From positions 1 to 36,417 of the forward strand of contig DASCML010000069.1 of assembly GCA_036010925.1 (NCBI GenBank): 36,417 nt of DNA, in the 5' to 3' direction. The notes below the pieces were generated by a model. That model worked only from the letters and a program-made list of their open reading frames with translations, had not been told where the DNA came from and ran no database searches. The position numbers were made by a program, and so were the translations under genes. This DNA is from Dehalococcoidia bacterium (GTDB taxonomy: Bacteria; Chloroflexota; Dehalococcoidia; Tepidiformales; Tepidiformaceae). Shown in pieces: positions 3,054-32,643 of this stretch (its first letter is position 1; every line of letters begins with the position of its first letter).

Positions 3054-3176
3054 TCCGACGATGAGCCGGTGTGTAGCTCATTGGGCGGACAGGCTTGCTC
3101 TCCACCTAAGATGTGGGCCCTTCTTCCTGACGAGGTTGTACATGTCGATTCTCTTTTGTGTGGCGTGAAAGTACGC

Positions 3177-4376
3177 ATGTCAACCCGGGCGAAGCCCCGG
3201 GTGATTGTCCCAGCAGATTCAACTCCGGTCTTGCTGCTCGCTCTCTTGGGGGCCGCAGCGGTTTTGGCAATCGGCTGCGGTGGTTCTTCAGATTTAACGC
3301 CGTCCGATTCTGATACACCAGGCAAGGTGGCATCCATTGTTTCGCCCACCGATTCGCCACCGTCGGGTCCTTCGCCGTCTCCTCCGCTAGCGGCAGATGG
3401 CATTACCGGTGCATCGGTTCCTCCACCGATGATCGAATCCGCGAAGTTCGATAGCTCGCGCGTGTCCGAGAGTGCGGGCAGCTTCCCGGCTCTGACCGAC
3501 CCTGAATTTGTGAGTGCCGGCACGGTAGATTGGATGAGTTTCGACGACCTCGTGCTGGGCGCGGTCCAAGGCGATGAATCGCGTGCCTATCCACTTTCGA
3601 TGATGACCTACCACCACGTGGTCAACGATACGCTGGGAGGTAGCCCTTACCTGGTTACCTTCTGAATAGTCTGCTCATCGGGGGTCGGTTTCGACCCTCA
3701 AGTCGGAGGCGAGCGCCTCCTCTTCCGGGCAGCGGGCCTCTACAACGGCGTCTTCGTCATGTGGGATGATGTTACTGGAACTTCCTGGTCGCACCTGGAC
3801 GGCGTGGCGCTCGACGGCGCTCTAGCGGGCGAACAGCTGCCAATCCTTCCGCTATGAACCGCGACCTGGGAAGAGTGGCTCAAGGATCACCCAGACACCA
3901 CCGTGATTTCGAATGACACGCCGTACAGCAACTCCTACCGGACCGTTAGCCTCGGCGCCCCCGGCCTGGGCACGCGGTTCGTGGACACGCTCGATGAAAT
4001 CGACGACCGACTCCCGATAAACACGCTCGTAATTGGAGTCCTTGCCGGGTCGGAAGCTATTGCATTTCCGCTCGATGCCGGGACGCAATCACCGATGCAG
4101 GCTGACGTGGGTGGGACCCCGGTCGTGGTTCTCGAAAGCGGCGATGGGACTCCGTCGCTCGCGTACCATCGCGCGCTCAGTGATGGCCGGATCCTCGATT
4201 TCGAACGGATAGACGGGGTGGTCTAAGACGCACAGACGGGCTCGACGTGGTCGGCCGATGGCCTCGCCCTGGAGGGTGAGCTTACCGGCGTTCAGCTGAC
4301 CTTCGTCACCTCGTTCCTGACGGAATGGTACGGATGGGCCGCATTCCACCCGGAGACTGAGATCTTCTTGGACTAG
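3177..4376 (+). pseudogene. DUF3179-family lipoprotein gene interrupted by three in-frame stop codons
   Basis: A single frame (phase 0) runs from ATG 3177 (or GTG 3165) to TAG 4374-4376. Signal peptide plus lipobox LAIGC. DUF3179-like blocks lie on both sides of every stop: ...RAYPLSMMTYHHVVNDTLGGSPYLVTF*IVCSSGVGFD..., ...LPILPL*TATWEEWLKDHPDTTV..., ...GVV*DAQTGSTWSADGLALEGELTGVQL...EWYGWAAFHPETEIF. Stops are TGA 3663-3665, TGA 3855-3857 and TAA 4224-4226. No frameshift is needed. Confidence 0.75.
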
Positions 4377-4380
4377 GTAA

Positions 4381-5148
4381 TCACCGGGCGGTATAACCGC
4401 CATCGACCGGGAGCGTCGCCCCGGTGATAAAAGAGGCTTCATCGGAGGCCAGAAACGCTGCGACGGTCGCAATTTCGGCGGGTTCGCCGAGTCGCCCCAT
4501 AGGGTGCAGGTCCGCGAGGTGTTTCTCTCCGGCCGGGTCCTCTCTAACTGCGGCGGTCATCGGTGTCACAATGAACCCCGGTGCGATGGCGTTCACGCGA
4601 ACGCCTTTGCGAGCGAATTGGACCGCGAACTGGCGCGTCAGCTGAATCACTCCTGCCTTTGACGCGTGGTAGGCCCCAGACCCGTACTCGGTCGGTGGAG
4701 CGTCGGGCATGGGTGCTGCCGGAAGAGCTACGAGTCCCGCGATCGAAGCTGTACTGACAACCGATCCACCACCCCTTTCGGATAGCACCTGGCAGCCGTA
4801 GTAGAGGCCGTTGTAAACCCCGCCCAAGTTTACCTCTATTACGCGGTCCCAGCCGAACCCAGCGCCGCCAATCCCTGCGTTGTTGAACAGCACGTCAATG
4901 CCGCCGAACTCAGTGGCGGTCTGTCGCAGGGCAGCGGAAACTGCCTTCCCGTTGGCGACGTCGAGCTCGAGAGCCTCCGCCGTACCCCCATGCTCACTGA
5001 CGGCGGCTGCGGTAGCCTCGGCACCAGCCATGTCTATGTCGGCGCACATCACCGCTGCGCCCTCCCGGGCGAAGGTGATGGCGCTTTCACGGCCGATTCC
5101 AGACGCAGCGCCGGTTACCAGCGCAACCTTGCTATTCAGTCTTCCCAT
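4381..5148 (-). CDS. SDR family oxidoreductase
   Basis: TGAASGIGRE (TGxxxGxG), NNAG and YHASK (YxxxK) motifs. Start placed at ATG 5148 after GGAGAGGGA. Confidence 0.9.
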   Translation of the reverse strand: MGRLNSKVALVTGAASGIGRESAITFAREGAAVMCADIDMAGAEATAAAVSEHGGTAEALELDVANGKAVSAALRQTATEFGGIDVLFNNAGIGGAGFGWDRVIEVNLGGVYNGLYYGCQVLSERGGGSVVSTASIAGLVALPAAPMPDAPPTEYGSGAYHASKAGVIQLTRQFAVQFARKGVRVNAIAPGFIVTPMTAAVREDPAGEKHLADLHPMGRLGEPAEIATVAAFLASDEASFITGATLPVDGGYTAR

Positions 5149-6800: not shown

Positions 6801-7445
6801 TCAGCGCTGCAGGTGGGCGATGTCTTCGTCCCGCCCGGCGACTATCCACAGATCATTGGATTGAACGACATCGTTCAGCTCGGGGTTGAAGGTTATTGAG
6901 CCGTCCCTGACCCGGGCTACGAAGAACACTTTGAAGCGGTCCTGGACGTCGATGTCACCGATACGAATGTTGTGGGCTCCGGTCGGGGCTTTCACCTTGG
7001 CGATCCCGTAGTCAGCCTGAACGGACATGTAGTCGGAGACGGACCGGGATCCGAGCGTGTGCGCGAGCCGAACGGCGGATTCCTTCTCCGGGTTCACAAT
7101 CACGTCTGCCCCGGCGAGTTCGAGGGCTCGCGTGTGGTCGTCGCTGCCCGTCTTGGCGGCGACGTGTCGCAAGTGCATCCGCTGCTTGAGCGTGAGGGTG
7201 ATGAGCACGCTAGTGGCAACGTCGCTACCGATCGCGACTATCACGTAGTCGTAATCGCCAAGAGCGAGCGACTCGAGGAATTCGACATCTGTGAGATTGC
7301 CCTCGGCAGCGAAGAGCACTTCTTCTGCGAGGTCGTTGACTAGTGCGGGGTTCTGGTCCACTGCAAGGACATCCACTCCGAGCCGCATGAGCTCGCGTGC
7401 TATCTGTGTGCCGAATCGACCGAGTCCCAAGACTGCTGCGTTCAT
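6801..7445 (-). CDS. trkA: TrkA/KtrA-type K+ uptake regulatory subunit (RCK_N + RCK_C)
   Basis: 214 aa. N-terminal Rossmann VLGLGRFGTQIAREL. Lies 3 nt downstream of the TrkH-family gene. Confidence 0.88.
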   Translation of the reverse strand: MNAAVLGLGRFGTQIARELMRLGVDVLAVDQNPALVNDLAEEVLFAAEGNLTDVEFLESLALGDYDYVIVAIGSDVATSVLITLTLKQRMHLRHVAAKTGSDDHTRALELAGADVIVNPEKESAVRLAHTLGSRSVSDYMSVQADYGIAKVKAPTGAHNIRIGDIDVQDRFKVFFVARVRDGSITFNPELNDVVQSNDLWIVAGRDEDIAHLQR

Positions 7446-7448
7446 AGA

Positions 7449-8867
7449 TCAACCAAGCCGGATGCTATCCCCCGGGACCCTGAAGGTCGACCGCCGCCGC
7501 GGTGCGTTCATCTGGAGAAGCAGTACGAGAGGCCCAAATCGACCCAGTAGCATTGCCCCGGTGAAGGCCAGCCGGGCCATTGCGTCCGCCCGGCCAGGTA
7601 CGCCGGTCGACATCCCGACAGTGCCCAGGGCCGAGACCGAATCGAACATCACGTTCACGAACACCTCGTCTGTCAATGCCATCATCAGGAGGATGAATGC
7701 CAGCGTGACCAGAAGACCCCAGATGGTGATGGCAAGCGCCTGCCTGATCATCCGTTCGGGGATCTTGCGGCGGAACAGGACTGCGTCGGGCTCTCCTCTG
7801 ACAGTCGCGAGCATCGCTGCCAGCAAGAGGGCGAACGTCCCGATCTTGATCCCCCCGGCGGTGGACCCGGCGGCCCCGCCGACAAACATCAACGGAGCCA
7901 CGAGCATCTTGGTCTGGTCGCGGGTTTCGTCGAGAGGAATGACGCTGAACCCGGCGGTCCGACTCATCGCAACCTCGAAGAACGAGTCAAGAACCCGCAC
8001 TTCTACGTTCTCCCGGCCGATCGTTTCGTCGTCGTCCCATTCGAAGACTGCGAACACGACGGTACCCAACACGAGGATTACCCCGGTCATCAGAAAGATG
8101 ATCTTCGCATCGAGTGGAAGCTTTCCCCAGGAACGGCAGCCAACGAACGCCAGCACCGGGATCGCTCCCATCCCCCCTAGGACCACAAGGACTGAGATGG
8201 TCCCAGTTATGGTGTGATTGGCTCGGAAGTCGATCATGTCGTTGCCGGTGATGTTGAAGCCGGAATTGTTAAAGGCGGAAATAGAGTGGAAGCCGGCCTG
8301 CCAGCCGGCTTCCCCAACGCCGTAGTCTTCCCCGAGGAATGCGAAGAAGAGGATCACGGTCCCGATAGCCTCTAGGGCCAGGGCATAGATGGCGATGTTT
8401 CTTACAAAGGCCAGGGTCTCGCCTAGGCTCGGGGCGCTGTAGTAAAGGCGCAGAAGTTGTCTGTCCCGGAGCCCCATTTGCCGGCCCGCTGCCCAGAGAA
8501 GCACGCCCGTGCCCACCATGTAACCGAGTCCACCGAGCTGCACGAGGGTGATGATCACGATTTCACCGAACATGCTCCAGTGAGTACTCGTGTCAAAGAC
8601 GGTGAGGCCCGTGACGCAGATCGCCGAGACGCCCGTGAACAGGGCGTCGACGAGGTTGGTCGGCTCTCCGTCTTCTGCGGCAAGCGGTGTCCCAAGGAGG
8701 AGGACTCCGATCAGCAGGGCAACGGCGAACCCCGAGAGTGCACGGACGGCGCCGCTACCCAGGGATCGGGATGGTCCAATTTCGCGGATTCGAACCTCAG
8801 CCGTGCCCATCCGCCGTAAGCGGATGGGTCGGGTCGCGCGCGAGAGCCTAGGGGGGCGCGACATCAT
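7449..8867 (-). CDS. trkH: TrkH/KtrB-family K+ transporter membrane subunit
   Basis: 472-aa polytopic membrane protein with repeated selectivity-filter-like Gly motifs (TGLTV, NNSGFN, TAGFS, TVGMSTG). The start could instead be the internal Met20. Confidence 0.88.
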   Translation of the reverse strand: MMSRPPRLSRATRPIRLRRMGTAEVRIREIGPSRSLGSGAVRALSGFAVALLIGVLLLGTPLAAEDGEPTNLVDALFTGVSAICVTGLTVFDTSTHWSMFGEIVIITLVQLGGLGYMVGTGVLLWAAGRQMGLRDRQLLRLYYSAPSLGETLAFVRNIAIYALALEAIGTVILFFAFLGEDYGVGEAGWQAGFHSISAFNNSGFNITGNDMIDFRANHTITGTISVLVVLGGMGAIPVLAFVGCRSWGKLPLDAKIIFLMTGVILVLGTVVFAVFEWDDDETIGRENVEVRVLDSFFEVAMSRTAGFSVIPLDETRDQTKMLVAPLMFVGGAAGSTAGGIKIGTFALLLAAMLATVRGEPDAVLFRRKIPERMIRQALAITIWGLLVTLAFILLMMALTDEVFVNVMFDSVSALGTVGMSTGVPGRADAMARLAFTGAMLLGRFGPLVLLLQMNAPRRRSTFRVPGDSIRLG

Positions 8868-17806: not shown

Positions 17807-18841
17807 TTGGAAGATAACGTCGTCAAGAACAAGGAATTCAACGAACGGATCGTCAAGTACCTTGAGCGGCAAATTCCAGCCGCTCAAGAGTTGTCGGCCC
17901 ACGTTGTCCGGATGATGGGTGGCCGCTCTTGGGACCTCTTTGGCGTCCGTGCCGAGTGGCAGGAGGGTGGTCAGCCGAAGAAGGACGCTTGGGTGTTCAA
18001 GGTTTCGCCTAAGGGTGGGATTCTCGAGCCGCACGACCCTTCGGTGGAGTTCCGTCTCCTCGAGGTCTACGAGCGGAACGGACTGCCTGTTCCCAGGCCC
18101 GTGTGGCTCGAGATGGAGAGCGAACCGCTGGGACGCCCGTTCTATGCTATGGAGTGGGTGGAAGGCGGCGACATTCCATCGCTCGCAGACCCGCGATTCG
18201 AAGATCCGGCGGAAAAGGACCGCTGGGGCAAAGCCTTCGCCGGGATGTTGGCTCGCATCCACAACCTCGACTGGCGAAAAGAGAACCTGACCGAGTTCAT
18301 ACCCCCACTCGATGCGCCGGGGAATGACCCGGTGGAACGCGAAATTGCTTGGATGGAGCAGAAAGCTGCTGGGATGGAGCTGCCGCCGACGCCCGCGCTT
18401 CGGGGAATCTTCCAGTGGTTGCGGGTGAATCGTCCCATCATCTCAGATGACGAAGCCCGCCTTGTTTACGGCGACTACCGCTTCGACAACTTCTTCTGGA
18501 AGGATGGGGAGCTCGTATCTCTGCTCGACTTCGAGATGGGCCTTATCGGTCACCCTATGGAAGACGTGGCGTTCGCCCGCATGCTGTCTGGCTGGGCAGG
18601 AATCCACGGCGACCATGCTCGCCACTATGAGGAGCTCAGCGGTGTCAAGATCGACGAGCAGCTCGTTGCCTATTTCCTTACGCTGAAGATGACTCAGATC
18701 ACTGTGATCGTCTCGCTCGCGGGAATCCAGGGGGCGATGCAGGGGCGTTCGAGAGACTCGCGGGGGATTAGCCTCGCCAATGGCGCTCACGTGGGGTCCG
18801 TTGGAATGCTCGGACAGTTTGTAACAGGAGGTGCCCGGTGA
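17807..18841 (+). CDS. phosphotransferase (APH/choline-kinase-like) family protein
   Basis: 344 aa. Catalytic-loop motif LVYGDYRFDNFFW and the Mg-binding LLDFEMG motif. TTG start 8 nt after GGAGGG. Confidence 0.85.
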   Translation: MEDNVVKNKEFNERIVKYLERQIPAAQELSAHVVRMMGGRSWDLFGVRAEWQEGGQPKKDAWVFKVSPKGGILEPHDPSVEFRLLEVYERNGLPVPRPVWLEMESEPLGRPFYAMEWVEGGDIPSLADPRFEDPAEKDRWGKAFAGMLARIHNLDWRKENLTEFIPPLDAPGNDPVEREIAWMEQKAAGMELPPTPALRGIFQWLRVNRPIISDDEARLVYGDYRFDNFFWKDGELVSLLDFEMGLIGHPMEDVAFARMLSGWAGIHGDHARHYEELSGVKIDEQLVAYFLTLKMTQITVIVSLAGIQGAMQGRSRDSRGISLANGAHVGSVGMLGQFVTGGAR

Positions 18842-26709: not shown

Positions 26710-27777
26710 ATGAGCTTCACGACAGAGGAGGTCTCTGCCTACCTGAGCGAGCGCCTCGACGCCCCGACGACCGTCGGCTCTCTCTTCCAGACTTTCCCGG
26801 GAATGTCGCGGGAGACATGGATCGTGAAGGCGCAAGTTGGCGAAGGCGCTCTCGCAGAGGAAAGAGATCTCGTAATTCGTGTGAATCTGCCGAGCGGCGG
26901 AATCGTTCCCCTTCCCCTTAAGCTGGAGTGGGACGTTTACCAGAAGCTTTGGGGCACGGAGATCCCGGTAGCAGAGCCACTCTGGTACGACGAGGGACTT
27001 CCTTTTGCGGATGGAAGGGCTCATATGGTCCGCAATCTCGTCAATGGGAGCACGAGCGTTCCCGGAATTGGCGAGTCGGGGCCCAAAGGCGATGCCTTCA
27101 GGAAGCGAATCGCATTCGAACATGCGGAGAAACTTGCCCTCGTGCACACGTTCGACTGGAGGGCGAAGGGGCTCGACAAGATTCTCCCCACTCCAGACTC
27201 AGCCGCGGAGGCCTTCCGCCACGATTTCGAGATGTGGGTAACTCTCTGGGAGCAGCATCGTCCAGCCCCGTATCCGGAGGTCACCAGGTTCCTTTACTGG
27301 CTGCGGGAGCAGATTCCAGACACAACGCCCCGGATAGCGCTCGTCAAGGGAAACAACGGTATCGGAGAAGAGATCTGGAAGGACGGCAAGATCGTCGCCA
27401 TGAGTGACTGGGAACTCGCTTCTCTGGGCGACCCTACCCAGGACTGGGCGTTTTCACAGGGCATGTTGGGCCTCGCTGACCCATCAGAGACGCTCGCGCA
27501 CTACGAAGAAAAGGCCGGTTTCAAGCTTTCGCGGCGTGGCATGGCGTTTGCCCAGCTATTCATCGCCTTTAAAACGATCGCCTGTCTTAGCAACAGCCTG
27601 AAAAGCTTCATCGCCGGCGAGGACCACCGGCCGGTTCCGGTCACGCTTGGGCTCGGCAACGTGAAGAACTCGATCCATCGGCTGGCGCCACTTGTCGGCA
27701 TGGACCTGGTCGACGCGGCGGACGTCCTGTCGGGGCCACGGGCCCCCTCCAGCGTCTATTTTTCAAAGGATGATTAG
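26710..27777 (+). CDS. APH-like phosphotransferase-fold protein lacking canonical catalytic residues
   Basis: 355-aa paralog of 17807..18841. It aligns unambiguously around the shared WKDG. The motifs read LVKGNNGIGEEIW (the paralog has LVYGDYRFDNFFW) and VIRV (the paralog has VFKV). MSDWELA is retained. GGGAGAGGAA SD. Confidence 0.85.
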   Translation: MSFTTEEVSAYLSERLDAPTTVGSLFQTFPGMSRETWIVKAQVGEGALAEERDLVIRVNLPSGGIVPLPLKLEWDVYQKLWGTEIPVAEPLWYDEGLPFADGRAHMVRNLVNGSTSVPGIGESGPKGDAFRKRIAFEHAEKLALVHTFDWRAKGLDKILPTPDSAAEAFRHDFEMWVTLWEQHRPAPYPEVTRFLYWLREQIPDTTPRIALVKGNNGIGEEIWKDGKIVAMSDWELASLGDPTQDWAFSQGMLGLADPSETLAHYEEKAGFKLSRRGMAFAQLFIAFKTIACLSNSLKSFIAGEDHRPVPVTLGLGNVKNSIHRLAPLVGMDLVDAADVLSGPRAPSSVYFSKDD

Positions 27778-27863
27778 ACTAAATCCGGACCTTCCGATGG
27801 CGTGTGGGAGGCCCGAATTTACGATCCGGTCACAGTTTCGAACTAGATCCGTGGTATCCTAGG

Positions 27864-27982
27864 CACGCGTCGAATCCCGTCCAACGGGAACGGGGGAACC
27901 AAAATTTGGGGCTAACGAGCGGCTCGTCTGCTCGCGGCGACTTCCGACGCCGAGCCCGTCAGCTAACCTCGTAGACGCTAAT
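27864..27982 (+). promoter_or_regulatory. c-di-AMP riboswitch (ydaO-yuaA class)
   Basis: Class-typical blocks occur in order: GCGUCGAAUCC, hairpin CCCGU-CCA-ACGGG, ACGGGGGAACCA, GGGGCUAAC, internal GC hairpins, then CCGAGCCCGUCAGCUAACCUCGUAGACGC. The P1 helix GCGUC (27867-27871) / GACGC (27974-27978) closes the element. An extended -10-like TGGTATCCT lies at 27852-27860, just upstream. Confidence 0.8.
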
Positions 27983-27984
27983 CG

Positions 27985-28033
27985 GGAGACGGTTTCGTCT
28001 CCTCCACCGAGTCTCTTCGGAGATTGCCGGAGG
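27985..28033 (+). promoter_or_regulatory. putative expression platform: two mutually exclusive hairpins, the second sequestering a GGAGG
   Basis: Hairpin A is GGAGACG-GUUU-CGUCUCC (27985-28002). Hairpin B pairs CCUCC (28001-28005) with GGAGG (28029-28033) and encloses AGUCUC-UUCG-GAGAUU (28010-28025). A and B share C28001-C28002. Confidence 0.4.
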
Positions 28034-28290
28034 TCCGACTTGCCGCGCTTGGATGCGTCCCAGAGAGTTGATCTGCGTCGCCGGGGAATGGCCCGGTGGG
28101 CGCTCAGTCACGCTGTCTCGCTGAATCCGATCGCGGGCGCCAGGTCGCTTGTTCGCTATCCCGGTGGCAGGGCCGGGGTTTGCGGATCCAGACAGCCTGG
28201 TCGGTCCTTCGTGCGACGCTTCAGCCCTTGCTCTGGTCGATGCTTGGCGTTGGCTTCAGCAGGGTTTCACTGGTGATCTGGAGGATCTCA

Positions 28291-28701
28291 ATGACAGTCA
28301 TATTCGACACTGACCCTACCGGGCTGGATGCCCAAATCACGTCCCATGACCCCCTCGAGGAGGTCGTAGGCGCGCTCCGCGCTGCCAGGGAAGTCCCGTT
28401 CGAAGCGGAGAGACCTGCCCTCTGGCATAAGCGCTTTACCGCTCGCGTTACTGACGCGCTTGTTGCGATGCGCGGCCACGCTACCAACGCAAGGACGGCC
28501 GCAGGCTCTCTACGTTCCGAATGTTCGACCCTTGTGACAAAGATCGACGGACTTCTCGCTTCAGCTCTCAGCGCTCAGCCGAGACAGGTCCAAGTACCCC
28601 AGATGGTGGAACTATCCGAACAGGCGGTGGCCCTTGAGCTGGCCGGCCGCGACCACGCGCGAGTGGCTGCTCTGTGCGAAGAGGGCGCCCCCGGCGGTTG
28701 A
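28291..28701 (+). CDS. hypothetical protein (136 aa)
   Basis: ATG 28291 lies 5 nt after GGAGGA (28280-28285). The third codon position is GC-rich. The part of ORF 28096..28701 upstream of this ATG is Arg-rich and unconvincing. No family recognised. Confidence 0.5.
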   Translation: MTVIFDTDPTGLDAQITSHDPLEEVVGALRAAREVPFEAERPALWHKRFTARVTDALVAMRGHATNARTAAGSLRSECSTLVTKIDGLLASALSAQPRQVQVPQMVELSEQAVALELAGRDHARVAALCEEGAPGG

Positions 28702-28784
28702 CCTAAGACCAAACTCTCGCCAGCATCAGCGTTCGCGCCTCGCCGGGGGCCAGTTTTGAACCGGGAGGCGCTTCAGGAGGACCC

Positions 28785-30128
28785 ATGACAGAGCACAAGT
28801 ATCACGCCTATGGCGCGCACAATATCAGCAACGTTCCGCAGTTCGCGAATCTTCCAGAGGAGGACAGGTTCGCGATCGATGTGGTGTCGCGGGTGCTCCC
28901 ATTCAAGATCAATAACTACGTTGCCGACGAGCTTATCAATTGGGACAATGTACCTAACGATCCCGTCTACACTCTCACGGTGCCTCAGCGCGGAATGCTC
29001 GCGCACCATCACTTCGAGGCCGTCGCTCGGCTGGTTCGGGACGGCGCTCCGAAGGATCAGATTGATTCAGCTGTGGCCGAAATCCGAGCGACCTTGAATC
29101 CGCACCCGGCCGGCCAGCTCGAGCACAACGTGCCAGAGCTCTATGGCGAGCGCCTCGAAGGTATGCAGCACAAGTACCGCGAGACCGTCCTCTTCTTCCC
29201 AGCCAGTGGACAGACCTGTCATGCCTACTGCACATTCTGCTTCCGATGGCCACAGTTCGTTGGCGACAAGGGCCTCAAATTCGCCTCAGCCGAGGCCTCT
29301 GCGCTCGTCGACTACCTCCGCTATCATCCCGAGGTAACAAATGTCCTCTTCACCGGGGGGGACCCGATGGTGATGAGCGCTGCGCGTTTGGAGTCCTATA
29401 TCCGGCCGATTCTGGAGGCCAGGCTCCCGAACATCGTCAGCATTCGCATCGGCACGAAATCCCTCAGCTACTGGCCCTACCGGTACCTTACCGACAAGGA
29501 TTCGGAGGACGTGCTCAGCCTCTTCCGTGAAATAACCGGCAATGGTTTGCATCTCGCCATCATGGCGCACTTCAACCATCCCCAGGAACTGCAGACATCC
29601 GCAGTCGCCGAGGCCATCGGCAAGATTCGCGACACCGGGGCCGAGATCCGGACGCAGTCGCCGTTGATGGCCAATATCAACGACAGGGCCGAGGACTGGT
29701 CTGCTATGTGGCGAAAGCAGGTCAATCTCGGCTGCATCCCCTACTATATGTTCATTGCGCGTGACACCGGTGCACAGCAGTTCTTCAGGGTGCCCCTTGT
29801 CCGGGCGCAGGAGATCTACCGCGAGGCATACGCACACGTAAGCGGACTCGCGAGGACCGTTCGCGGACCTAGTATGTCCGCCGATCCCGGAAAGGTCCGG
29901 GTCATCGGACCTGTCGAGCTTCCGGGTCGCAAAGTGATGGCGCTGAACTTCCTTCAGGCCCGGGACCCCGACTGGGTGCAGCGAATTTTCCTGGCCGAAT
30001 GGGATGAGAACGCTGCCTGGCTCGATGAGCTGAGGCCAGCCTTCGGAGAGACGCGATTCTTCTTCGAAGACGAACTCGCCGCTATGCACGGCAACGCTCT
30101 CCAGGAGCTCGTGTTCAGCGCACGCTAA
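28785..30128 (+). CDS. KamA-family radical-SAM aminomutase (lysine/glutamate 2,3-aminomutase-like)
   Basis: 447 aa. Radical-SAM CHAYCTFC (CxxxCxxC) motif followed by FRWPQF, and the FTGGDPMVM motif characteristic of the KamA family. AGGAGGA SD 4 nt upstream. Confidence 0.88.
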   Translation: MTEHKYHAYGAHNISNVPQFANLPEEDRFAIDVVSRVLPFKINNYVADELINWDNVPNDPVYTLTVPQRGMLAHHHFEAVARLVRDGAPKDQIDSAVAEIRATLNPHPAGQLEHNVPELYGERLEGMQHKYRETVLFFPASGQTCHAYCTFCFRWPQFVGDKGLKFASAEASALVDYLRYHPEVTNVLFTGGDPMVMSAARLESYIRPILEARLPNIVSIRIGTKSLSYWPYRYLTDKDSEDVLSLFREITGNGLHLAIMAHFNHPQELQTSAVAEAIGKIRDTGAEIRTQSPLMANINDRAEDWSAMWRKQVNLGCIPYYMFIARDTGAQQFFRVPLVRAQEIYREAYAHVSGLARTVRGPSMSADPGKVRVIGPVELPGRKVMALNFLQARDPDWVQRIFLAEWDENAAWLDELRPAFGETRFFFEDELAAMHGNALQELVFSAR

Positions 30129-32146: not shown

Positions 32147-32643
32147 CAAATCGGCCCAGATTCTAGGGAACAATCTAGATCAATTCTGCATCAATCGGTC
32201 GAGCACCTGGCTTCTTTCCGGATGATGCTGGGATTGATCGTGCTTCGGCCTGCTGGCGTAAATGAGACTTCGCGGCCTGGGGCGTCGCAGTTGGCCCAGC
32301 TGACTACCCGGACGTGGCGGTTGGGGTGACCGGACGCGTGGCCGGCGGCCACGCCGACCGGGGAGTCTTGCTGTGTGGGAGCGGGGTTGGAGTGAGTGTT
32401 GCAACAAACAAAGTGGCCGCAATCCGCCATGACACGTTTTCGGCAAGGCAGGGAGTCGAGGATGATGCTATGAATGTCCCGTGTCTTGGTGCGCGAGTTA
32501 TTGGCCCGGAGCTGGCTGTTGAGGTCGTCGGCGCCTTCGCGTCTGCCGAATTCCTAGCAGCTGAGCGAAACGCATGGAGACCGGCCAAGGTTATTGCGCT
32601 TGAATCAGCGGGAGCACCTCAAATTACGGGAGGTACCGAATGA
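32147..32643 (+). pseudogene. rpiB: degraded ribose-5-phosphate isomerase B gene
   Basis: The 3' two-thirds is an open frame, ADYPDVAVGV...ADRGVLLCGSGVGVSVATNKV...LGARVIGPELA..., but catalytic-region residues diverge: EDDAMNV where the family has HN-x-x-NV, and ERNAWRP where it has ERH-x-RR. About 4 residues are also missing after ...AAIR. The 5' third is split between phases 2 and 1 (...QIGPDS..ILHQSVEHLASF / DDAGID...). There is an in-frame TGA at 32263-32265 and no usable start codon. Confidence 0.6.

Follow-up and report, generated by a model that had tools for sequence, protein, structure and literature searches.

A c-di-AMP riboswitch upstream of genes for a small, predicted four-helix-bundle protein and a KamA-like aminomutase relative in Dehalococcoidia

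The stretch of DNA analysed here, called the window throughout, comprises the 36,417 nucleotides of contig DASCML010000069.1 from a Dehalococcoidia bacterium (assembly GCA_036010925.1). Between positions 27852 and 30128 of its forward strand lies a riboswitch for cyclic di-AMP (c-di-AMP), followed on the same strand by two open reading frames (ORFs) that had been correctly described in an initial annotation made from the letters alone: one of 136 codons (ORF136) and one of 447 codons, coding for a relative of the KamA family of radical S-adenosylmethionine (SAM)/pyridoxal phosphate (PLP) enzymes. The unannotated four-helix-bundle family to which ORF136 belongs is named the SP family in this analysis. 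The features of the locus, including the strong Shine-Dalgarno (SD) sequence of each of the two genes, are as follows:

27852..27860, + strand: candidate extended -10 promoter element, TGgTATCCT
27858..27993, + strand: c-di-AMP riboswitch aptamer
27941..27947, + strand: P7 loop strand of the pseudoknot, CUUCCGA, complementary to 27982-27988
27982..27988, + strand: 3′ tail strand of the pseudoknot, UCGGGAG, overlapping the 5′ arm of hairpin H1
27984..28003, + strand: hairpin H1, GGGAGACG-GUUU-CGUCUCCU, 8 bp, from minimum free energy (MFE) and centroid folds
27994..28290, + strand: structured leader of 297 nt between aptamer and ORF136
28000..28005, + strand: CU-rich anti-SD strand UCCUCC, 3′ part of H1, from the folds
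28291..28701, + strand: ORF136, a trimmed SP-family protein of 136 aa (ATG at 28291, SD GGAGGA at 28280-85)
28702..28784, + strand: intergenic spacer of 83 nt, holding the SD of the KamA-like gene and a hairpin at 28735-28771
28785..30128, + strand: KamA-family radical-SAM/PLP relative of 447 aa, from an uncharacterised clade (SD AGGAGG at 28775-80)

The element had been taken in the initial annotation for a member of the ydaO-yuaA class, and the covariance search bore this out. The Rfam family RF00379, for which the gathering threshold is 38 bits, matched 27858-27993 on the + strand at 76.4 bits (E 3.2e-16), spanning model positions 1-134 of 134, and the same aptamer scored 99.5 bits with R1, a covariance model built in this analysis. 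RF00379 was the sole Rfam family matched anywhere in the window, and it alone was matched when 27700-28900 was searched with permissive filters at E<=1, so that the presence of another RNA family within the 297-nt leader was rejected. The near-invariant CCGAGCCCGTCAGCTAACCTCGTAG segment and the closing P1 helix, both of which had been pointed out earlier, were found at 27950-27974 and as a 4-bp pairing of CGUC (27868-71) with GACG (27975-78), respectively. In addition, the ACGGGGGA and CCGAGCCCGUCAGCUAACCUCGUAG blocks aligned to the RF00379 consensus with high posterior probability, the ligand-pocket blocks being kept. The P7 loop (CUUCCGA) and the 3′ tail (UCGGGAG) can form 7 pairs, including one U-G, and related riboswitches presented different loop/tail pairs that were complementary each time (UCUCC/GGAGA, GCCUUC/GAAGGC, and CUCCGA/UCGGAG), a complementarity judged by eye, with no statistical score. 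By these matches, 27858-27993 encodes a c-di-AMP riboswitch, and one that is typical of its already known class.

For comparison, 80 genome loci carrying genes of the clade to which the KamA-like protein belongs were fetched together with metagenome loci, and all of them are referred to by L numbers. The candidate extended -10 element was identified by alignment with TGCTATAAT of L081, where the spacing to the aptamer is identical; it would set the transcript start at about 27866, at the foot of P1. A consensus scan of this candidate promoter region revealed no σ70 site.

Downstream of the aptamer, the expression platform comprises, in this order, the pseudoknot tail (27982-88), H1, the anti-SD strand, a UUCG hairpin, an SD-like GGAGG (28029-33), and a TTG codon at 28040. 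H1 and the pseudoknot are mutually exclusive across 5 nt. When the pseudoknot tail was blocked, UCCUCC paired with GGAGG 28029-33 in a short-segment fold (27982-28055) and with the ORF136 SD (GGAGGA, 28280-85) in a fold of the whole leader, of which this latter pairing is the predicted closing helix. The leader is more stable than expected from its composition, with an MFE of -139.9 against -127.1 +/- 5.6 for shuffled sequences (z -2.3; 0 of 100 shuffles equally stable), and its sequence displayed no conservation with those of L081 or L091. Leaders of comparable length were found in L091 (297 nt) and L094 (308 nt), whose folds do not reproduce the long-range anti-SD:SD pairing predicted in the window. 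The terminator scan and the comparison of the spacer fold with shuffled sequences revealed no terminator-like site between 27993 and 28785, and intrinsic termination was therefore rejected both behind the aptamer and in the spacer that separates the genes.

The TTG codon at 28040 starts a 78-codon ORF that ends at 28276, and its GC content by codon position (0.62/0.67/0.65) is non-coding-like. A conserved leader peptide in the window was rejected, since a hidden Markov model (HMM) built from the upstream ORF (uORF) peptides of L081, L091, L109, L121, and L124 found nothing in the window leader; the same HMM additionally matched L108 and L112. In these seven long-leader riboswitch loci (for example, at 5767-5895 of L081 and 2443-2625 of L091), a conserved uORF of about 33-62 codons was observed, with motifs including RNRPWQPVVGHL and SSYIAxHSRRS. 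Over 12 codons compared between L081 and L109, there were 8 synonymous and 0 non-synonymous differences, and the peptide of the long-leader uORF is therefore under selection.

The hairpin of the window platform has counterparts in its relatives. L081 carries the same hairpin as H1 with a different loop, and all short-leader sister loci present an analogous GGAGGGC...GCCCUCC hairpin within a stereotyped order of elements: aptamer, UUCGGAGGGC, loop, GCCCUCCC, GC-rich hairpin, AGGAGG, and AUG, with UUCGGAGGGC serving as pseudoknot tail and hairpin 5′ arm at once. The hairpin-then-SD layout is common to the window, L081, L097, and L109. When 11 short-leader SP loci were folded with ViennaRNA unconstrained, the hairpin between the tail and CCCUCC was formed and the SD was mostly free, whereas forcing the tail to be single-stranded, which mimics its capture by the ligand-bound pseudoknot, led the SD to pair with CCUC, in what had been an arm of H1, in 8 of the 11. 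In five Dehalococcoidia loci (L002, L003, L004, L008, and L014), a conserved GC-rich hairpin with compensatory changes comes after the aptamer and ends in a short U-run; the KamA-like gene then begins, with its SD and ATG about 80-190 nt past the aptamer. A simple terminator scan did not flag the hairpins of these five loci, and they are therefore called terminator-like only.

The product of ORF136 had been listed in the initial annotation as an unknown protein. It is no orphan bystander, since no other family was found to be targeted directly by this riboswitch subtype as often as its own, which occupies the first position behind the riboswitch in 28 of 80 metagenome loci, usually with its ATG 70-110 nt past the aptamer. 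The protein shares 31% identity (BLASTP, E 4e-9) with a 159-aa protein in the same position in L091, and five true relatives of 136-171 aa were recovered when 1.84 billion representatives were searched exhaustively with phmmer. The AlphaFold2 (AF2) model of ORF136 contains 4 helices (pLDDT 84.4, pTM 0.77), and that of a canonical SP member is a confident four-helix bundle as well; the copy in the window is without about 18 residues of the canonical sequence. Taking together the L091 match, the phmmer relatives, the conserved position after the riboswitch, and the confident AF2 models, the possibility of a spurious orphan ORF was rejected: ORF136 is a real gene. A word-indexed search with ORF136 matched only itself, and the single site within the ORF that differs across five near-identical contigs was uninformative on coding. 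No assignment to Pfam, NCBIfam or, by Foldseek, to structures of the PDB was obtained for ORF136 or the SP family beyond generic four-helix bundles, and the hint of a hemerythrin-like fold was weak (Pfam E 0.93; 3cax at rank 7).

Two further loci, L114 and L164, carry a mini-ORF of 13-17 codons just past the aptamer, ending in RWDIERFP and a stop codon, followed by a helical ORF of about 128 aa and then by a KamA-like gene. No significant similarity was detected between this helical ORF and the ORF136 family (hhalign probability 2.7%).

The association between the riboswitch and the KamA-like gene is not restricted to the window. Matches to RF00379 or R1 were found 95-260 nt upstream, on the same strand, of the KamA-like orthologues in seven of the nine Chloroflexota genome loci (L001-L004, L008, L009, and L014), and in none of the 71 genome loci from other phyla. 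Four closer metagenome homologues (67-72% identity) are all preceded by the riboswitch, directly in L081, L090, and L092/93, and via a longer operon in L091. The Rfam model confirmed the riboswitch in 15 of 15 representative loci, with 69-93 bits. Moreover, a riboswitch-first scan of metagenome contigs, performed with a 29-nt pattern of the riboswitch subtype, yielded the 80 loci mentioned above, and a KamA-like gene was within the first two genes in 6 of them. Altogether, RF00379 lies upstream of KamA-like genes in 18 distinct loci including the window, and all identifiable ones are from Chloroflexota. The pairing, whose co-occurrence across genomes the initial annotation had proposed to examine, is, as judged from its distribution, conserved in evolution and not due to chance.

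The same riboswitch subtype also precedes otsA, which codes for the trehalose-6-phosphate synthase OtsA. In L091, the riboswitch is followed by an SP homologue, OtsA, the KamA-like gene, and a cytidylate-kinase-like gene; in L094 and L129, the order is riboswitch, SP, and OtsA; and in L136, L140, and L158, the riboswitch is placed directly before OtsA. The regulon of this subtype therefore includes OtsA and, as a probable second solute-synthesis enzyme, the KamA-like protein, which supports the idea of c-di-AMP control over osmolyte biosynthesis; this proposal of the initial annotation, based there on the aminomutase, was strengthened in this way by the sister loci.

The 447-aa product is clearly related to the KamA family, matching TIGR00238 with E 5.8e-39 and lysine 2,3-aminomutase (LAM, 2A5H) with E 8.6e-21 (7e-26 with a profile). 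The earlier designation as a KamA-family aminomutase was accurate as to this relationship, but not as to family membership, since the protein falls below every curated cut-off: KamA family TIGR00238 (134 bits against 199.2), AblA TIGR03820 (117.9 against 525.4), AblA-like 2 (112 against 396), EpmB TIGR03821, for the beta-lysylation of elongation factor P (97.9 against 369.3), and arginine 2,3-aminomutase (93 against 600). The choice among lysine, glutamate, and EpmB types offered in the initial annotation does not accommodate it, since it falls short of the cut-offs for AblA, EpmB, and glutamate 2,3-aminomutase (Eam) alike. The enzyme is part of a separate and uncharacterised clade that is very widespread and unusually conserved. 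More than 8000 homologues were scored, and identities of 55-71% were found across Dehalococcoidia/Chloroflexota, Bacteroidota, Ignavibacteria, Proteobacteria, Nitrosopumilaceae, and a metagenome-assembled genome (MAG) of Methanosarcinaceae; the nearest KamA-like relatives are from Dehalococcoidia or Chloroflexota MAGs and from "bacterium HR29", which points indirectly to Chloroflexota as the probable origin of the window.

The catalytic core is well preserved. The cluster motif CxxxCxxC (C145-H-A-Y-C149-T-F-C152) is invariant in 81 clade sequences, and the active-site region can be aligned with that of LAM without gaps, which places R154 at R134, R326 at D293, S363 at D330, and K370 at K337. 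K370 is invariant and sits 14 residues past a conserved SG, as in LAM, in which Lys337 is the PLP-binding lysine and Arg134 the carboxylate-binding arginine. The residues C145, C149, C152, R154, R326, S363, and K370 are invariant or present in 80 of 81 clade members of both domains, and R357 and R360 are conserved to the same degree. The two remaining LAM positions, D293 and D330, reportedly hold the epsilon-ammonium group of lysine, and Eam reportedly replaces these two Asp with Lys and Asn (Lepore 2005; Ruzicka & Frey 2007). The exchange of the Asp pair for Arg and a neutral Ser amounts to a charge reversal and argues for an acidic substrate. From these two substitutions and the gene neighbourhood, the enzyme is probably a 2,3-aminomutase acting on an acidic substrate, presumably glutamate, and distinct from Eam.

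Clade members from other organisms provide this neighbourhood. In about 25 Nitrosopumilaceae loci, a divergent gene for an MscS-type mechanosensitive channel flanks the clade gene, and 12 of them have a type I glutamine synthetase gene immediately after the clade gene. In a Burkholderiales MAG, the clade gene is followed by a Na+/H+ exchanger gene. Neighbour annotation covered the larger neighbour clusters, and within these no AblB-like acetyltransferase was found among the conserved families. In Nitrosopumilus maritimus, beta-glutamate is the most abundant metabolite, at 730 mM (PMC8269262), and no gene assignment for its synthesis in this archaeon was found in the searchable literature. The active-site charge reversal, together with MscS and glutamine synthetase as neighbours, makes the clade a concrete candidate, accessible to testing, for the enzyme that produces beta-glutamate in marine Thaumarchaeota. 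A broader proposal, which we advance tentatively and hold to be somewhat doubtful as a whole, is that the clade would represent a second, independently evolved glutamate 2,3-aminomutase and the source of beta-glutamate in marine ammonia-oxidising archaea and many bacteria, and that the clade, OtsA, and the four-helix-bundle protein would together make up a solute regulon of Chloroflexota under a c-di-AMP riboswitch acting through translational strand exchange.

For the window itself, it is considered probable that the riboswitch governs a two-gene operon of ORF136 and the KamA-like aminomutase gene with OFF logic, the enzyme converting glutamate into beta-glutamate. Co-transcription of the two genes is plausible, given that no terminator-like site lies between them and that their linkage is conserved. 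The riboswitch would act as an OFF switch, as characterised class members do: at high c-di-AMP, indicating adequate turgor and solute, the aptamer and its pseudoknot would be locked, and the pseudoknot would take up the purine-rich tail UCGGGAG and release UCCUCC from H1. The released strand could then mask an SD, either the nearby GGAGG 28029-33 or the ORF136 GGAGGA, brought across by the folded 297-nt leader. Under hyperosmotic stress, c-di-AMP would fall, H1 would re-form, and the operon would be expressed, so that the enzyme could turn an acidic alpha-amino acid, most probably L-glutamate, into its beta isomer (beta-glutamate), a compatible solute. Such logic is suggested by the folds of 8 of the 11 SP loci, by the shared hairpin/SD layout, and by the behaviour of the c-di-AMP riboswitch that precedes ablA in Dehalobacter sp. 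CF, in tandem with a Na+-I riboswitch, which was OFF in vitro (White et al. 2022, PMC9337991). Translational OFF control through the exchange of strands would fit the induction of solute synthesis by low c-di-AMP under hyperosmotic stress.

Several observations weigh against parts of this model. The window's own folds keep the candidate SDs paired in both states, with different partners, so that they single out neither a window-specific switch nor the start codon that it would gate. In several sister loci (L134, L178, and L111), H1 is followed by a U-tract; if H1 were a terminator there, the logic in these loci would be ON and not OFF. An ON switch in the window, in which H1 with the pseudoknot tail would be a terminator or attenuator in the absence of ligand and c-di-AMP would disrupt it, agrees with the mutual exclusion of H1 and pseudoknot and with the U-rich run after H1 in sister loci such as L134 (CCCUCCCCUUUUUCUU), but in the window H1 is followed by CCACCGAG and not by U residues, and the freed CU-rich arm is predicted to mask an SD; tested members of the class are OFF switches, and the repression of solute synthesis at low c-di-AMP would be contrary to known physiology. 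We therefore judge an ON switch quite improbable. In most of the 28 SP loci, moreover, the SP gene is monocistronic and followed by convergent genes, so that the riboswitch might govern ORF136 alone, with the KamA-like gene expressed from its own promoter in the 83-nt spacer, where a hairpin lies at 28735-28771. This hairpin is no more stable than shuffled sequences (z 0.2) and has no U-tract; ORF136 and the KamA-like gene are on the same strand, 83 nt apart; at least 13 other loci have a KamA-like gene that follows RF00379 directly; and the order of riboswitch, small ORF, and KamA-like gene recurs in L091, L114, and L164. Control of ORF136 alone thus appears unlikely.

As to the enzyme, the reading of glutamate as its substrate draws on two residue substitutions and the neighbourhood, and it has to face the fact that Eam (TIGR04368) gave the lowest score of all the models (81.7 bits against a cut-off of 650). 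An AblA-like lysine 2,3-aminomutase producing beta-lysine or N-epsilon-acetyl-beta-lysine would agree with the name "lysine 2,3-aminomutase" that homologues bear in their sources, with LAM as the best solved relative, and with the Dehalobacter precedent (PMC9337991), yet this is very improbable in view of the distance to the AblA cut-off (117.9 bits against 525.4), the invariant Arg326 and Ser363 at the positions of the two lysine-binding Asp, and the lack of an AblB-like acetyltransferase among the conserved neighbours in the larger clusters annotated. A role in amino-acid catabolism or another pathway, with the riboswitch link reflecting some other process under c-di-AMP control, would also fit a class I/II aminotransferase gene that adjoins the clade gene in 11 loci from several phyla, and a second, divergent c-di-AMP riboswitch that precedes a class-III aminotransferase gene in L008. 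On the other side, the operon of L091 is shared with OtsA, which the same riboswitch subtype also precedes, the clade neighbours include MscS, glutamine synthetase, and a Na+/H+ exchanger, and osmotic homeostasis lies at the centre of what is known of the c-di-AMP regulon (PMC9337991), so that a catabolic role is given a low probability compared with the synthesis of a compatible solute.

The second riboswitch of L008 (4464-4599, - strand) is arranged back-to-back with the one that precedes the KamA-like gene, and the class-III aminotransferase behind it (3126-4403, - strand), whose best matches are GSA-aminomutase-like and below cut-offs, may be a further enzyme of the same regulon. Among the loci with the riboswitch subtype (L099-L178), 12 have as their first gene one for an unannotated protein of about 160-190 aa, and further recurrent first genes code for an MFS transporter, a cytidylate-kinase-like protein (PF13189), and a DUF2269 membrane protein. 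In L002 (7595-8758), L004, and L008, a LysM + M23 peptidase gene lies about 250-320 nt past the KamA-like gene on the same strand, and no second riboswitch was found there; cell-wall hydrolases are classical targets of c-di-AMP riboswitches. In L081, the closest relative, a gene for a DUF5698+DUF2179 membrane protein (7355-7906) overlaps the stop codon of the KamA-like gene, which suggests translational coupling, and the window has a convergent aldo/keto reductase gene in its place.

Elsewhere in the window, potassium uptake genes are present, as the initial annotation had noted when it suggested a connection with c-di-AMP:

7449-8867, - strand: trkH
6801-7445, - strand: trkA

The connection to the riboswitch was rejected, since these genes lie 20 kb away on the opposite strand and have no riboswitch of their own. 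The window also encodes two APH-type phosphotransferase-family proteins (26710-27777 and 17807-18841), a luciferase-like monooxygenase, an aldehyde:ferredoxin oxidoreductase, and a DUF3179 protein, whose gene is found upstream of the riboswitch in L090, L092, and L093 too. The whole window recurs in five contigs with 99.7-99.95% identity, from four metagenome assemblies and one assembly of a public sequencing run. The sole polymorphism hotspot among these near-identical contigs is located at 32270-32351, between the ROK and transaldolase genes, where L087 presents 13 substitutions, mostly to G or C.

The best-known effect of c-di-AMP is to restrain the uptake of K+ and osmolytes, and the control of solute biosynthesis by its riboswitch has one tested case behind it, the ablA gene of Dehalobacter. 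The window and its relatives would extend this control to a biosynthetic set in uncultured Chloroflexota, made up of OtsA, an aminomutase clade, and a new small protein. What is added here is an uncharacterised and extremely widespread enzyme clade whose active-site residues appear to favour an acidic substrate, a four-helix-bundle family without annotation that a riboswitch subtype targets most often, OtsA as a co-regulated gene, and a terminator-less platform of hairpin, anti-SD, and SD. The recurrence of this layout offers a defined model for the use of the riboswitch class by high-GC organisms without intrinsic terminators.

Compared with other members of the RF00379 (ydaO/yuaA) class, the window element presents the same full-length architecture, from P1 to P7 with the pseudoknot, and the same ACGGGGGA and CCGAnCCCGUCAGCUAACCnCGUAG blocks. 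It differs in its platform, which has no intrinsic terminator and in which one hairpin combines the pseudoknot tail on its 5′ side with an anti-SD strand on its 3′ side, in the 297-nt structured leader that follows the aptamer, and in the downstream genes, which are not the usual ones for transporters or cell-wall hydrolases. The enzyme, in turn, has in common with LAM (KamA, 2A5H) and Eam the CxxxCxxC motif, the carboxylate-binding Arg, the PLP Lys with equal spacing, and a collinear core, and it resembles Eam in that the two Asp of LAM become one basic and one neutral residue. Unlike both, it scores under all curated cut-offs and has N- and C-terminal regions of its own, and it carries Arg/Ser where Eam reportedly has Lys/Asn. 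With regard to the OtsA-dependent trehalose response to osmotic stress, sister loci have the riboswitch subtype and the small protein before OtsA, whereas the window is without otsA and has the KamA-like gene in that position. The pairing of a c-di-AMP riboswitch with such a gene had been described in the initial annotation as uncharacterised, which, given the tested precedent of Dehalobacter ablA, is correct only in part. Both systems place a c-di-AMP riboswitch ahead of a KamA-family aminomutase gene and have been read as osmolyte control; in the window, a single riboswitch, without a Na+ aptamer or terminator, precedes a gene of a non-AblA clade, and an extra, conserved small protein is encoded between the riboswitch and the enzyme gene.

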